From an uncultured Alphaproteobacteria bacterium (GTDB lineage Bacteria > Pseudomonadota > Alphaproteobacteria > Rs-D84): 64,000 bases of DNA. The stretch's first letter is position 1. The number at the start of each line of letters is the position of its first letter. The notes under the pieces were generated by a model. That model worked only from the letters and a program-made list of their open reading frames with translations, did not search any database and was not told the DNA's origin. Positions 7,991-60,954 of the stretch are shown here, in pieces. Location: positions 4,830 to 68,829 of the forward strand of contig CALXLL010000004.1 in assembly GCA_944389185.1 (NCBI GenBank), in the 5' to 3' direction. A program made the position numbers and the translations under genes.

Positions 7991-8006
7991 TATACAGAGA
8001 AAAATA

Positions 8007-8033
8007 AAATCCCGCTTTTGCGGGATTTTTTTT
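8007..8033. terminator. Bidirectional rho-independent terminator
   Basis: aaaatcccgc-tttt-gcgggatttttttt lies between convergent genes; A-run and T-run flank a GC stem. Confidence 0.6.
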
Positions 8034-8044
8034 ATAAGCTTCTT

Positions 8045-9115
8045 TTATCTGTTAGTTAATTGCAACTCTATACGACGATTCTTTTGCATACTTTCTTGAT
8101 CTGTTCCAAGCTCTACTGGATATAAATCACCGAAACCACTTGGCACAAGTCTTCGTCTGGATACACCGGCTTTTGCCAATTCATCGGCAACGGCAGTTGC
8201 TCTTAATAAAGATAATTCGGTATTATTCTTATAAGCTTTTGTTCCGCGCATAACTTGCTGTCTGTCCGTATGACCGTCTATACGAATAATCCAGTCTATA
8301 TCTGTAGGTATCTGATTTTCTAAATCTTTTATTACGTTAGCTATTAATCTAAGTTGATTCTTACCTTCTGGTGAAAGAGTATAAGAACCACTGCCGAATA
8401 ATATATCGCTGGATATTATAAATCTATCACCGTCTTGCTGTATAGTCGTTCTGTCACCAAGAGCAGTTTTTACGGCTTTATAGAACTCTGATTGATATTC
8501 TGCCATTTTATTAAGTTCCGCAACTTTATCTGCCAAAGCTTTGTTGAGTTTATTAGACATTTCTACGTATTGAATTTCTTGCTCTCTGGATTTTTCTTCG
8601 GCGGCACTTAATGCGCTTTGTAATTTCAATAATTGTTCTGATAAAGATGCGCGTTGTGCTTCTAATTCCGTCTGTAAGTCTTTTCTGTCTTGTTCAAGTT
8701 GTTTTGTAGCGGCTTTATCTACGTTTGCTTGATTAAGTTGCGTCGTTAGTTCACTTATTTTTGCTTCGTAGTCGGCGATAAGTTCTTCTACGCTGATATC
8801 AACTTCCGCAAGTTCCGTATTTAATGCAAGATTATCTTGCGTCAGATTTTCTAATTCGGCACGCGCAAGTATTAAAAGCCTTTTCGCTTCTTCTTCGTCT
8901 GCCGTCATCTGAGTTATTTTCTGTGCTTGTTCTTCATTAGTCTTTTTCAATTCAGCAATAGCTTTTGTCCCAGAGTCTTTATTAAATACACTGGTCGTGG
9001 TCCATAAAAAGACGAATACTATCAATAAGAAAATAAGTATTATCACCAAGTTAGAGAATAAGTCTACAAAAGCAGGCCATGTGTTTGTTTTTTCTTTAAA
9101 GCGTATGTTCATCAT
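8045..9115 (-). CDS. MotB/OmpA-like peptidoglycan-binding stator subunit with a long central coiled coil
   Basis: 356 aa. N-terminal WPAFVDLFSNL plus a TM helix (MotB-like, with an Asp just before the helix). About 160 aa of heptad-like E/K/Q/L sequence follow. The C-terminal OmpA_C-like domain reads IDGHTD......Y.NN.ELS..RA.AVA..L...GV...RL...G.G...P........Q.KNRRIEL. Confidence 0.8.
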   Translation of the reverse strand: MMNIRFKEKTNTWPAFVDLFSNLVIILIFLLIVFVFLWTTTSVFNKDSGTKAIAELKKTNEEQAQKITQMTADEEEAKRLLILARAELENLTQDNLALNTELAEVDISVEELIADYEAKISELTTQLNQANVDKAATKQLEQDRKDLQTELEAQRASLSEQLLKLQSALSAAEEKSREQEIQYVEMSNKLNKALADKVAELNKMAEYQSEFYKAVKTALGDRTTIQQDGDRFIISSDILFGSGSYTLSPEGKNQLRLIANVIKDLENQIPTDIDWIIRIDGHTDRQQVMRGTKAYKNNTELSLLRATAVADELAKAGVSRRRLVPSGFGDLYPVELGTDQESMQKNRRIELQLTNR

Positions 9116-9138
9116 TTTCCCTCTCGCTTTGGTTTCGT

Positions 9139-9915
9139 TTAAGATAACTCTGACAAAGTGTTCTTTAAGTCTTGAACGCTTTTGTTTAATTCTTGCGTGG
9201 CTTCGCTGATTTTAGGCAAAATGCTTGCCACTTCTTCCGAAGCTGATACGCGTGTGTGTGATGATAAGTAGTCTTCCAGTTCGTGAAAAATCGTGTTCTG
9301 AGCCAGCTGAACTTGAAGACTTAAAAAACCGACGCTAAGACTACCTGCCAAACCAAGTAAAGAACTGGTAAATGCTGTCGCCATACCTGACAAAGGTTTG
9401 GTAAGCCCCTGTTGCATAGTAAGCATTACTTGTTCGTCTTCAAAATTAAGACCGCCGATTAAATCTGCAAAACCACCAACCGTCATTATTAAACCTAAAA
9501 ACGTGCCAAGTAAGCCTAAAAATATAAGTGTGTTCGTTATATATCTGACCGATTCGCGCGAATCTTCAAAACGAATTAAAATCATATCAAGCATACCTTG
9601 TAAGTTGCCGGCAGATATTTTTTTTGGTCTGGCCTGCAACATCAAAGCGACAGAGCGTAAAAGCTTTGGCGGCAATTTGCCAGAACGACGCCCGCGCAGA
9701 TAATTGCTTAACCATTTATATTCTGGTAGTAATTGAAACATTTCAACAAAGCACAAACCAATTCCGAATATAGTAGTGCCGATAATTATACCGTTTAAGT
9801 ATATATTAGTGACGGCAATTTCCAGAAACTGACGATAAAAAAGCAGAATCCCCGCAAATAGAATAGCGGTAAATAAAGCCATTCGGTTAAGGTTTCTATG
9901 AAATTGGTTTGTCAT
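9139..9915 (-). CDS. MotA/TolQ/ExbB-family proton-channel subunit
   Basis: Multi-TM protein with the family signature GLLGTFLGLI...G and a C-terminal TM pair (ATAFTSSLLGLAGSL). The track start at 9957 is a TTG; ATG 9915 (MTNQFHRNL) has a GAGAG Shine-Dalgarno upstream and is preferred. It sits 23 nt upstream of the MotB-like gene. Confidence 0.75.
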   Translation of the reverse strand: MTNQFHRNLNRMALFTAILFAGILLFYRQFLEIAVTNIYLNGIIIGTTIFGIGLCFVEMFQLLPEYKWLSNYLRGRRSGKLPPKLLRSVALMLQARPKKISAGNLQGMLDMILIRFEDSRESVRYITNTLIFLGLLGTFLGLIMTVGGFADLIGGLNFEDEQVMLTMQQGLTKPLSGMATAFTSSLLGLAGSLSVGFLSLQVQLAQNTIFHELEDYLSSHTRVSASEEVASILPKISEATQELNKSVQDLKNTLSELS

Positions 9916-10064
9916 GTATCTCTCGCTTATATATAAGATGATAGTAAATATAGTCAAAACATGTCAACAATAAAAAGCTTGATTTTTATAGAAAAATATA
10001 CATAATAAGCTTTGTTCCTGCTGATGACATGGGGTCGTCGGCTGTATAAACCAAAGGAAATAAA

Positions 10065-17013: not shown

Positions 17014-17190
17014 GAGTATATAAGGTAGCAAGCATTTTTACCCATGTAAAGCAGAAAGTTTTTTGCGCTTTTTTTATTAAAAAAGTGCTTTTTTATAAAA
17101 ATCAAGTCTTTTATTTTAACTAATTTACTTGTCCGCGGCTTTTTAACATCGTCAAAATATGATAAAATGTATATCAAGATAGCGAGAGAG

Positions 17191-18291
17191 ATGGAAAAGT
17201 TTTTAAATAAAATCTTAACAGGCGATTGTGTGGATGTTATGCGCTCTTTACCAGATGCGTCCGTTGATGCGGTGTTTGCGGATTCTCCTTATAATTTGCA
17301 GTTGGGAACGAAAACTTTGTATCGACCAGAAGACCAGACCGCTGCAAGGGCTGTTCGTGACTCTTGGGATTCTTTTTCTTCTAATAAAGAATATGATGAC
17401 TTTACACGTGCTTGGTTGACCGAATGTAAAAGAATTTTAAAACCAGATGGAGCCATGTGGGTAATTGGCAGCTATCATAATATTTTTAGATTAGGGGCAA
17501 TTCTGCAAGATCTTGGTTTCTGGATTCTTAATGATATTGTATGGGTAAAAACGAACCCTATGCCTAATTTTCGTGGAACAAGATTTACTAATGCTCATGA
17601 AACTTTGATATGGGCCACGCCACGAAAAACAGGTAAATATACGTTTAATTATGAAACTATGAAAAAACTTAACGGCGGTAAGCAAATGCGCTCTGACTGG
17701 GATTTGAATATTTGTCTTGGTGAAGAACGTCTTAAAGATAAAGACGGTAAAAGCCTTCATAATACCCAGAAACCACTTGATTTATTACGTCGAGTAATCT
17801 TGGCTTCTACTAAAACCGGCGATATAATATTAGACCCTTTTATGGGTAGCGGCACCACTGCGGTTGCAGCAAAAGAGTTAAATCGCCAATTTATCGGTAT
17901 TGAACGAGAAGAAACTTATGTCCAAGCTGCGTTAAAGCGACTGGAAAAAGTCGTTCCTATGGATTTGTCCGATATAGAAGTATCAGTTCCAAAACGTGAA
18001 GAAATTCGTGTCGCGTTTAGCGAGCTTTTAGAAGCTGGTTTATTGTATGCAGGTCAAACGTTGGTAAGCCCAAAGGGTGAACGCGTCATGATTACCAAAG
18101 ATGGACAATTAGTCCACAGCTTGTATGGCAAGGCTTCAATTCATGTTATGGCGGCAAAAATACAAAAAACAGTCAGCTTTAACGGTTGGGATTACTGGTC
18201 GGCAGAAAAAAGAGATGGTTCTTTGGTCCCAATTGATGAACTTAGAAAGTATATTCGCAGTATTAAACAAGATATTAAAAAGGCCGCTTGA
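17191..18291 (+). CDS. ccrM: CcrM-type N6-adenine DNA methyltransferase (beta class)
   Basis: Collinear with Caulobacter CcrM as I remember it (GDC....M..LP..SVD..FAD.PYNLQLG; WVIGSYHNIFR.G...QDLGFWILNDIVW.K.NPMPNF.GTRF.NAHETLIWA; HPTQKP..LL.R.IL..TK.GD.ILDPF.GSGTT). ATG 17191 gives the same spacing to GDC as CcrM. Motif IV reads DSPY (17281..17292) instead of DPPY. Confidence 0.88.
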   Translation: MEKFLNKILTGDCVDVMRSLPDASVDAVFADSPYNLQLGTKTLYRPEDQTAARAVRDSWDSFSSNKEYDDFTRAWLTECKRILKPDGAMWVIGSYHNIFRLGAILQDLGFWILNDIVWVKTNPMPNFRGTRFTNAHETLIWATPRKTGKYTFNYETMKKLNGGKQMRSDWDLNICLGEERLKDKDGKSLHNTQKPLDLLRRVILASTKTGDIILDPFMGSGTTAVAAKELNRQFIGIEREETYVQAALKRLEKVVPMDLSDIEVSVPKREEIRVAFSELLEAGLLYAGQTLVSPKGERVMITKDGQLVHSLYGKASIHVMAAKIQKTVSFNGWDYWSAEKRDGSLVPIDELRKYIRSIKQDIKKAA

Positions 18292-59385: not shown

Positions 59386-60954
59386 ATGAAAAGTAAGAAT
59401 TATATATCTTCAAGTTTAATGTCAAAATTGCTGGTTCTGGTTGCTGGGCTGTCTCTTGCTGGATGTGCAGGAACAGACACAAATAATGAATACGTGCCAG
59501 TTGCAACGCCTACGGTTGATTACGTAGAAACGTTGGATGTATATTCTGCACCTCATAAAGACTCTTTCTTAAATCAGTTGGCGATGAATTATCGTTCTTA
59601 TGCAATTTATAATGCAAGAACAAGTATGTATCCTGAAATAGGCGAATTGTTTGCACAAAAAGCAGTTGCTGCTTTTTCTGGTGAATTACCTTTCCCAGAA
59701 ACTTTACAAAATTGGCCAATAGAAGACGAACAAGCTTCTTTCGAGGTGTATACTGCTTATAATGAATTGATAGATCAACTGAAAAATGATGCCAGCTTAA
59801 CAAACCCAGAGCTTGCAGCAGAAGCACAGGCAAAATATGATTGTTGGATTTCTGCTTTGGCAAGCGGTCAGTATGCTACTGCCGATGAATGCAGAACAAG
59901 ATTTCAAAAAGCTATTAATGTTTTAAAAGATTGTGAAAACGGTAAAGTAATTTCTGGTGGGACAACAGTTGCAGAAACAGTAGAAACAACTTCGAATGTT
60001 TCCGGTGAAGTTTCCGTTGCATTAGAACAAGATGTTCAACCAGAAAAACAAGAACAATTTTATCCGGATACAAGGAATATGCGTTCTATGAACAGCTCTT
60101 CTCATGCTCGAGAAGGTGTAATTATTGTTAATAATGTAAATGTGCCAGAACATTTAATAAATCCTGTCCCAGTTCAGCCATTGGTGTTTAATCAAAATAT
60201 TTATGGTGGTGATAAGACTATAACAGACAGCAATAATAAAACAAAAACAGTAACAGATAGTAATAATACAGAATCTTTGTCTGATACAGATGGTAATCTT
60301 GATAATAACTGTATTGGTGCCAGCTTGCCGGAATGTCAAAATGTTACAGAACCAATCCCTGTCGTTTCTGAAGAATATATAAGTCGAGAAGAGTTTATTA
60401 ATATGATGATGGCAATGCGCGCTGAATTGGCTGCTATTAATGCAAGGCTTGATAAAATAGAACTTGCCACAAACGATAAAACAATTATAAAAGTTCAACA
60501 GATTCCTTTGGAACCCCAGCAGCATATAATGGAAGAGGTTTTGGAAATACAATTTGACTTTGATAAAGCAGTTGTAAAACCTGAATATGATGAATTAATA
60601 AGACAGCTGGTCGGGGCAACTCAGAATAATAAAAATATAAAAGTTTCTGTTGTAGGTCATACGGATACGGTTGGAACCAAAAGCTATAATTATGCTTTGG
60701 GCGGACGTCGTGCAGAAGCTGTTCAACAAATGTTAATAAAGTATGGTATTCCTGCAAGTCAGATAGTTGCAGTTTCGGCTGGTGAAGAAGGCTTAAAGGT
60801 TCCAACGCCAGATAATGTCAGGAATGCTGAAAATCGTAGAGTCCGCGTTGTGAAAGAGACTTCTTATACTGAAATGGCACCGGCAGAACCCGTAAACATA
60901 GAAGTAGGGGAGTTTTCTGAAACAGTATGTGGGGAATACGGTTGTCAAAATTAA
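59386..60954 (+). CDS. OmpA-family peptidoglycan-associated lipoprotein (522 aa)
   Basis: Lipobox LSLAG|C. C-terminal OmpA_C domain (FDFDKA.V.P......L.......I.V.GHTD..G...YN..L..RRA.AV...L...G......A...GE......N.RV). Short TDSNN repeats in the linker. Confidence 0.85.
   Translation: MKSKNYISSSLMSKLLVLVAGLSLAGCAGTDTNNEYVPVATPTVDYVETLDVYSAPHKDSFLNQLAMNYRSYAIYNARTSMYPEIGELFAQKAVAAFSGELPFPETLQNWPIEDEQASFEVYTAYNELIDQLKNDASLTNPELAAEAQAKYDCWISALASGQYATADECRTRFQKAINVLKDCENGKVISGGTTVAETVETTSNVSGEVSVALEQDVQPEKQEQFYPDTRNMRSMNSSSHAREGVIIVNNVNVPEHLINPVPVQPLVFNQNIYGGDKTITDSNNKTKTVTDSNNTESLSDTDGNLDNNCIGASLPECQNVTEPIPVVSEEYISREEFINMMMAMRAELAAINARLDKIELATNDKTIIKVQQIPLEPQQHIMEEVLEIQFDFDKAVVKPEYDELIRQLVGATQNNKNIKVSVVGHTDTVGTKSYNYALGGRRAEAVQQMLIKYGIPASQIVAVSAGEEGLKVPTPDNVRNAENRRVRVVKETSYTEMAPAEPVNIEVGEFSETVCGEYGCQN

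Follow-up and report, generated by a model that had tools for sequence, protein, structure and literature searches.

This work concerns two adjacent genes, called A and B below, in a stretch of 64,000 nucleotides (the window) of an uncultured alphaproteobacterium (assembly GCA_944389185.1, contig CALXLL010000004.1), which encode a channel subunit with four transmembrane (TM) helices and a protein in which a long coiled coil joins a TM helix to a peptidoglycan-binding domain. The pair is an ordinary tail-less member, of the Enterousia clade, of a widespread stator-like family, and the coil of B was found to change its length across that family largely by whole heptads, which may be a new point. 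As to what the two proteins do, we lean towards the view that they form a peptidoglycan-anchored, ion-driven unit of five A and two B subunits (A5B2) acting in envelope or cell-division physiology.

A preliminary description, made from the letters of the window alone, had proposed an orphan pair, i.e., a 4-TM MotA/TolQ/ExbB-type protein and a MotB-like partner, working through a periplasm-spanning stalk on an output such as envelope maintenance, gliding or defence. The module itself is borne out by the fold matches of A, by the alignment of its motifs with those of TolQ and by the OmpA matches of B. Its orphan status is not, the pair being one of a large family (PRK09039), and the stalk and two of the suggested outputs fare poorly, as discussed below.

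The two subunits and their family

Both open reading frames lie on the minus strand, as do the features of the pair given below other than the bidirectional hairpin, and were originally called over 8045..9957. Whilst the limits of B and the strand stand, gene A (9139..9915, 258 amino acids) most likely starts at the ATG at 9915 and not at the TTG at 9957, because a promoter-like site (TTGACA-18 nt-TATCAT, 9938..9967, 11/12 matches) overlaps that TTG and because database orthologues measure 249-258 amino acids. The AlphaFold2 monomer model of A (predicted local distance difference test score, pLDDT, 85) has the TolQ/ExbB/ZorA/MotA fold: its top 50 Foldseek matches are all A subunits of 5:2 motors, with TolQ first (9ddm_E, template modelling score, TM-score, 0.51/0.58), ZorA second (8vvn_D, 0.46/0.50), ExbB (5sv0) next, and MotA and PomA at rank 41 or lower. 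As for sequence profiles, Pfam MotA_ExbB matches A at E 0.066 (13.4 bits, under its 22.9-bit cut-off) and the NCBIfam MotA models do not match it; the PADLOC ZorA (ZorA1) profiles do so at E 5.5e-13, covering only the TM3-TM4 core, and NCBIfam ZorA_2 and ZorA_4 reach 2e-06 (27 bits against a cut-off of 100) and 23 bits (against 500), respectively. A search of the PDB sequences with the A-family profile returned coiled-coil noise only, e.g., apolipoproteins.

A profile of 40 A-family members aligns with the TolQ of the host itself over LGLLGTFxGL and GMxTAFxSSLxGL (hhalign probability 81%). The TM3 motif LGLLGTF (residues 133-139, 9499..9519), which includes Thr138, is invariant in the 40 members, aligns to FIGLFGTIWG of host TolQ and is the counterpart of the 'GLLGT' ion-path motif of TolQ/ExbB. 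The TM4 motif GMATAFTSSLLGLAGSL (residues 177-193, 9337..9387), which includes Thr180, aligns to TM3 of host TolQ and keeps G177, M178, F182, S185, G188, L189 and L193 invariant in the same members. Past TM4, most family A proteins (~380 amino acids) carry a conserved helical tail of 130-170 residues, with a family median of 170 residues after this helix, whereas A of the window, like the rest of the Enterousia clade, has only ~55; the 130-170-residue helical tail was thus not found on the window's A, and its absence is a truncation specific to this clade. In two Enterousia-related metagenome-assembled genomes (MAGs) from rumen and horse gut (L050:3995-5143 and L051:3986-5173), A has a C-terminal extension of ~170 residues, IRIDGKYPALVAIG..., which looks alpha/beta, replaces the helical tail and has no match in a Pfam search. 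The region of A that holds the tail seems to be plastic in evolution.

Gene B (8045..9115) encodes a PRK09039-type 'peptidoglycan-binding protein' of 356 amino acids with the N-terminal sequence MMNIRFKEKTNTWPAFVDLF, of which the database copies begin at the second Met (355 amino acids). Four parts follow one another in it: a short N-terminal stretch in the cytoplasm, the TM helix that carries Asp18, the coiled coil and an OmpA domain. Asp18 (codon 9062..9064), the residue picked out in the preliminary description from the stretch FVDLF and presumed to bind the ion, lies within the motif W-P-x-[FWY]-[VI]-D and is invariant in alignments of 30 and 38 B sequences; W13, P14 and the OmpA motifs DGHTD (Asp284) and ELSxxRA (Arg305) are invariant too. 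AlphaFold2, run on the alignment of 38 sequences, places the TM helix at residues 16-42 (8990..9070), an unbroken helix at residues 48-219 (8459..8974; 172 residues, ~25 nm at 0.148 nm per residue) and an OmpA-type alpha/beta domain at residues 225-355 (8051..8443), with a mean pLDDT of 78, in agreement with the long heptad-rich segment seen at first. Residues 41-225 contain no proline and 32% charged residues, and one heptad position is hydrophobic throughout the coil. A coil folded into a helical hairpin, with the OmpA domain at ~10 nm, was considered and rejected, as the domain would return to the membrane and AlphaFold2 gives a single helix.

That the C-terminal part of B is a genuine OmpA-like peptidoglycan-binding domain of the MotB type, as first supposed, agrees with Pfam (OmpA, residues 239-347, E 1.2e-15), with profile matches in the PDB (MotS 3e-26, MotB 2e-22, PomB 3e-21) and with Foldseek, the best matches of which are DVU_2228, PA0833, MotS and PomB. 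The PADLOC profile ZorB3 matches B at 1e-22, covering only this domain, and ZorB is just the 28th among the fold matches of B. The ExbD/TolR fold (PF02472) gave no match in B, and the hhalign probability against host TolR is 1.4%.

The pair appears, on sequence grounds, to belong to a vertically conserved alphaproteobacterial family already catalogued as PRK09039. The NCBIfam model of this name (NF006543, 'peptidoglycan-binding protein') matches residues 8-356 of B at E 8e-72 over model positions 12-350 of 350, and B has the family signature, i.e., W-P-x-[FWY]-[VI]-D (here WPAFVD, with Asp18), YxSEF (here YQSEFY, with Tyr207) and a spacing of 73 residues from the latter to DGH[TA]D. In an even sample of 301 alphaproteobacterial genomes, 256 of which are of high quality, the B model is present in 202 (67%) and in 174, respectively, and it was not found in the Caulobacter control. 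An A homologue stands directly upstream of B in all 12 loci inspected at first and in 76 of 80 thereafter, the remaining four stopping at contig ends, and, in a set of 1.84 billion representatives, the A family (E <= 1e-30) falls into 1,087 clusters at 50% identity. Among the hosts that have names are Devosia, Kordiimonas, Paracoccus, Yoonia, Roseivivax, Acidisoma, Nitrospirillum and Tepidicaulis. Members from other orders stand in a conserved row of housekeeping genes, gap-pgk-fba-thiE-efp-suhB-A-B, beyond which lie the gene of an MsbA-like ABC transporter, in convergent orientation, and rpmE; pgk is still upstream of the pair in the window. Compared with clade orthologues, pN (the proportion of non-synonymous differences) is 0.18-0.30 and synonymous sites are saturated; both genes are under purifying selection.

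Several observations on the distribution of the family may be added. The pair also occurs in some Xanthomonadales (Gammaproteobacteria), namely Dokdonella ginsengisoli (L109) and a Chiayiivirga MAG (L103), where it may have arrived by horizontal transfer. Acidisoma cellulosilyticum (G301, L086) is a second non-flagellated genome, with no FliG match, that has the pair, and its B measures 475 amino acids. In three distant Alphaproteobacteria (L024:6214-6813, L032:5492-6727 and L037:5208-6794) an extra OmpA-domain gene, with a product of ~410 amino acids in L032, lies immediately upstream of A on the same strand and may encode a lineage-specific third component.

In the databases, B goes by the names 'peptidoglycan -binding protein' or 'chemotaxis protein MotB', PF28175 is listed for some of its homologues, and members are often called 'flagellar motor protein MotA'. 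Our search of the literature found no paper describing the PRK09039-type A/B family as such; it is not described in the MotAB phylogeny published in mBio in 2025 (PMC12505986), and the pair is not mentioned in the paper on the R. sphaeroides CenKR regulon. The possibility that it figures among the Rgs polar-growth proteins of S. meliloti (PMC7327166) was dropped, RgsF being a TPR/Sel1 protein and the supplements containing neither MotA nor OmpA.

Length and phasing of the coil

Measured from the Asp of the TM helix to the Tyr of YRSEFF in 224 distinct B sequences, the stretch of B that holds the coil takes 47 distinct lengths between 160 and 902 residues, and 26 of these fall in a single class, 6 mod 7, which is the main heptad phase. 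Most of the others fall in classes offset from it by +1 (0 mod 7, eight lengths), +3 (2 mod 7, four lengths) or +4 (3 mod 7, seven lengths), and only two lengths belong to classes with no coiled-coil reading. Offsets of +1, +3 and +4 are known as the skip, stammer and stutter discontinuities of coiled coils. The classes depart from uniformity (chi-square p = 9e-14), and where nearest relatives differ in length, 38 of the 55 differences are multiples of 7. Eight Acetobacteraceae loci fetched later obey the same rule: 160, 167 and 307 keep the main phase, and 150 has the stutter offset. In B of the window, Asp18 and Tyr207 are 189 residues, i.e., 27 heptads, apart; lengths within its clade are 189, 196, 203, 210 and 224. 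From YRSEFF to DGHTD, every one of the 224 sequences, the window's included, has a spacing of 73. Quantisation by heptads implies that the coil of B is one continuous in-register rod and not a flexible linker.

This rod is of no fixed size. Across the family, coils run from ~130 to 880 residues (roughly 19-130 nm), with a minimum at ~130 (~19 nm) and no evident maximum, and B as a whole from 316 to 1,091 amino acids; the membrane-distal third of the coil is conserved, whilst its middle varies enormously. The longest, of 450-880 residues, are those of Rhodobacteraceae, which have internal repeats of ~100 residues. Coils of up to ~130 nm rule out a stalk or fixed ruler matched to the width of the periplasm, and the periplasm-spanning stalk of the preliminary description is for this reason unlikely. 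In a Paracoccaceae MAG (L106:5157-8432), and likewise in L063, L077 and L054, B has 646-1,091 amino acids with tandem repeats of ~100 residues, e.g., AALDEAVVAKDARIAGLEEELSAS..., and the coils would measure 70-130 nm if straight. A link between the length of the A tail and that of the B coil (Spearman 0.38) was set aside as weak and confounded by relatedness.

What the pair might do

By homology to the solved TolQR, ExbBD, ZorAB and MotAB, five copies of A would surround the TM helices of a B dimer, and ions would pass between Asp18 of B and Thr138 and Thr180 of A, all of them conserved residues; this flow would make A5 rotate, or cycle through conformations, relative to B2. The presumed B dimer would extend into the periplasm as a parallel in-register coiled coil of 27 heptads, at the tip of which the MotB-type OmpA domains, with their fold and key residues in place, would bind peptidoglycan. 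B2 would thus be fixed to the sacculus and A5 would be the mobile part. A role in the envelope or in cell division is suggested by the similarity of A to TolQ and by what changes in dosage do to 'motA' and 'motB' of Komagataeibacter hansenii, which belong to the same family.

The latter genes (348 and 321 amino acids) were studied in this non-flagellated species by Jacek et al. (2018, PMC6315621; 2019, PMC6570709), who treated them as motility-related and described neither the coiled coil nor the family. The published primers encode the N-terminus VTRPTTY for MotA, and MARRSR and IEFRLTDR* for the N- and C-termini of MotB. The exact locus of K. hansenii ATCC 23769 was not among the 401 Acetobacteraceae genomes sampled, in which the motB reverse primer gave 27 matches, relatives having 0-3 primer mismatches. 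In 8 of the 8 Acetobacteraceae loci fetched, the gene matched by the primer encodes a full-length B-family protein (E 1e-117 to 1e-135) that starts MARR, and the gene before it, of the A family, has a product that begins MTRPT[LI]YLLRM. The termini encoded by the primers and these loci therefore indicate that K. hansenii 'motA/motB' belong to the PRK09039-type A/B family, a membership that draws on termini, sizes and close relatives and may be another new point. The resemblance to the pair of the window extends to a non-flagellated host, adjacent genes, four TM helices in A, and one TM helix and an OmpA domain in B; unlike the window's A, that of K. hansenii keeps a longer C-terminal tail. Overexpression produced elongated cells, chains or filaments, ~3x spreading on 0.3% soft agar and a looser cellulose network (PMC6315621, PMC6570709). 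The role of the pair is most likely one that resembles Tol-Pal in spirit, and not flagellar rotation, TonB-type import or phage defence.

Several points weigh against an ion-driven unit of this kind. The Foldseek E-values of A are only 4e-3 to 2e-2, A reaches neither the curated cut-off of Pfam MotA_ExbB nor that of any NCBIfam ZorA model, and B, though its homology is clear, is under the equivalog cut-off of NF006543 (243 vs 305 bits). The 5:2 stoichiometry, the ion flow, the binding to peptidoglycan and the physiological output are things we infer. Most of the cytoplasmic tail, in other members the obvious output element, is gone from A in the Enterousia clade, and coils that reach 880 residues cannot be set at right angles to the membrane within a periplasm, which makes the geometry of the rod hard to account for. 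Disruption of motA, motB or motAB in K. hansenii ATCC 53582 leaves viable mutants whose cellulose is denser (reviewed in PMC7347698); the module is therefore not universally essential. Lastly, GFP fusions of the K. hansenii proteins are seen at the cell poles, but these foci may be aggregates, since GFP at the C-terminus of B would be periplasmic and overexpressed proteins aggregate at poles.

The alternative that best survives is a passive tether, with B as a static strut or scaffold between the inner membrane and peptidoglycan, A as a mere chaperone or anchor, and no ion-driven movement. A long rigid coil with a conserved OmpA anchor is what such a strut would look like, coils far longer than the periplasm is wide, as in Rhodobacteraceae, suit a scaffold lying in its plane, and the cytoplasmic tail of A is dispensable in the clade of the window. 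Even so, we regard it as unlikely: A and B are always co-encoded, and little but an ion pathway would readily account for an invariant Asp in the TM helix of B, kept across orders together with TolQ-type Thr/Gly motifs in TM3 and TM4 of A.

It is less likely still that the pair, like AglRQS and GldLM, is the motor of an apparatus for surface motility or gliding. The wider spreading of K. hansenii strains that overexpress the homologues, termed 'motility-related genes' by the authors, would fit such a motor, and gliding, as proposed in the preliminary description, finds no support beyond it. Spreading of this sort, however, can also stem from cell elongation or altered cellulose. No conserved Glt-, Gld- or pilus-like partner genes are found beside the pair, B is fixed to peptidoglycan, and the pair is kept in a gut-symbiont genome of 0.8 Mb without flagellar genes.

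A Zorya-like anti-phage module, or a remnant of one, is in our opinion very improbable, and so is the defence output first suggested. ZorA does provide the best sequence profiles for A and its second-best fold, ZorB3 matches B, and most family A proteins have a helical C-terminal tail, but the scores are far under the curated ZorA cut-offs, no ZorC, D, E, F or G accompanies the pair, its neighbours are ribosomal and housekeeping genes, and its coil is on periplasmic B and not on cytoplasmic A; the synteny from gap to B, the presence in two thirds of genomes and purifying selection on both genes are equally at odds with it. Least credible of all is the view that the pair is what remains, in degenerate form, of a flagellar stator once the flagellum was lost. 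Databases do often use MotA/MotB names, and the OmpA domain of B has its closest counterparts in MotS, MotB and PomB, but the fold of A is nearer to TolQ, ZorA and ExbB than to MotA or PomA, neither gene is free of purifying selection, the family signature, coil included, is common to flagellated and non-flagellated lineages, and flagellated relatives have the pair in addition to flagellar MotA genes beside fliG (five flagellated carriers hold FliG and 3-6 canonical MotA_ExbB paralogues as well, the pair's A being always the weakest Pfam match).

Returning to the ion-driven unit, a bolder form of it, which we hold tentatively and with somewhat less than even confidence, would count the family as one more functional class among the 5:2 ion-driven motors, and would place it in the core envelope machinery of Alphaproteobacteria. 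A rigid heptad-phased rod of 19-130 nm would then couple the ion-conducting TM dimer to peptidoglycan and control elongation and division. Either torque or position would reach the sacculus through the rod, or the rod would extend in the plane of the periplasm. If true, this mechanism differs from those of Mot, Tol/Ton, Gld/Agl and Zorya. The well-understood 5:2 motors (Mot, Tol, Exb, Gld/Agl, Zor) all have a known output, whilst the PRK09039-type family, which equals some of them in its spread among Alphaproteobacteria, survives extreme genome reduction and is routinely mis-annotated as MotA/MotB, is without an assigned function. The heptad-quantised rod yields a direct and testable structural prediction, and the K. 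hansenii 'motAB' phenotypes offer a tractable entry point.

Locus, host genome and likeness to known motors

In the window, A lies upstream of B with 23 nt between its stop and the start of B, exactly as first described, and the two are read as an operon with its own promoter-like site and terminator-like hairpin. The former sits in the divergent intergenic region common to gene A and rpsF; the latter (8006..8029), a bidirectional intrinsic-terminator-like hairpin, the 10-bp stem of which counts 5 GC pairs and has a T run to either side, is common to the pair and a convergent BOF gene. One flank of the pair holds the MscS and BOF protein genes, and the other rpsF-rpsR-rplI, recO, dsbA, pgk, rnhB, an SLT transglycosylase, nrdR, ccrM and clpPX. 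Within ~10 kb only housekeeping genes are seen and no flagellar, Tol-Pal or TonB genes were found, which upholds the initial statement that none is adjacent. The methyltransferase gene (17167-18291), of the CcrM type for N6-adenine and with a RAMA domain, adjoins nrdR and clpPX, an arrangement that fits the alphaproteobacterial origin of the window.

Of canonical MotA_ExbB/ExbD pairs, the assembly (796 kb, 96.85% complete) has just one, in a ybgC-tolQ-tolR-tolA cluster on contig 5 (C5:7370-9485), with tolB on contig 1 (C1:123469), and a search across it for FlhA (FHIPEP) and FliG (FliG_C) found neither. A separate, complete tolQRA with tolB, and the absence of FlhA and FliG, thus mean that the pair is neither the flagellar stator nor the TolQR of this organism, two identities that had been named at the outset as fatal to the proposal. 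The open reading frame of host TolQ (G000:C5:8583-9077, L010) has only 164 amino acids from its first start codon and matches positions 108-210 of the 216 of the TolQ model, so that its N-terminal third seems to be missing or to initiate at an unusual codon. Six OmpA-domain genes were counted in the host genome, and another such protein in the window is encoded in an open frame of 530 amino acids, at ~60553-60837 (G000:C4:65382-65666).

Compared with the PRK09039 family of NCBIfam, the name of which records no function, the pair of the window has the same domain order, invariant motifs and upstream partner gene, and departs from it in the tail of A, typically a helical one of ~130 residues and here wanting. 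With the flagellar stators MotAB, PomAB and MotPS the pair shares a 4-TM A, an Asp in the TM helix of B and the MotB-type OmpA domain. Nevertheless, A of the window is without the large cytoplasmic domain by which flagellar A subunits bind FliG, the short flexible plug and linker of MotB contrasts with the 172-residue continuous coil of B, and flagellated relatives have true stators as well as the pair.

Zorya ZorAB (PDB 8vvn; Hu et al. 2025) resembles the pair in that ZorA is the best sequence-profile match and the second-best fold match of A, in a peptidoglycan-binding B with a TM Asp and in the helical tail that follows the last TM helix of A in most family members. It differs in its ZorC to ZorG effectors and defence-island context, the pair having a housekeeping context with no ZorC/D, ZorE or ZorF/G effector genes found adjacent to it. 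Moreover, the tail of ZorA measures ~500 residues or more, against ~170 at most in the A of this family and next to nothing in the window, and the long coiled coil of the pair is on periplasmic B instead of the cytoplasmic part of A.

The likeness to Tol-Pal is of a different sort. TolQ is the best fold match of A, the TM motifs of which align to host TolQ; in Tol-Pal, too, there is a long helix in the periplasm (domain II of TolA) and a peptidoglycan binder of the OmpA type (Pal), and the filaments and chains of K. hansenii overexpressors resemble those caused by overexpression of TolQR. On the other hand, A has four TM helices against three in TolQ, B is unrelated to the TolR/ExbD fold and, unlike TolQ-TolR-TolA/Pal, the pair unites in one protein a TM helix with the Asp, a long helix and a peptidoglycan-binding domain.

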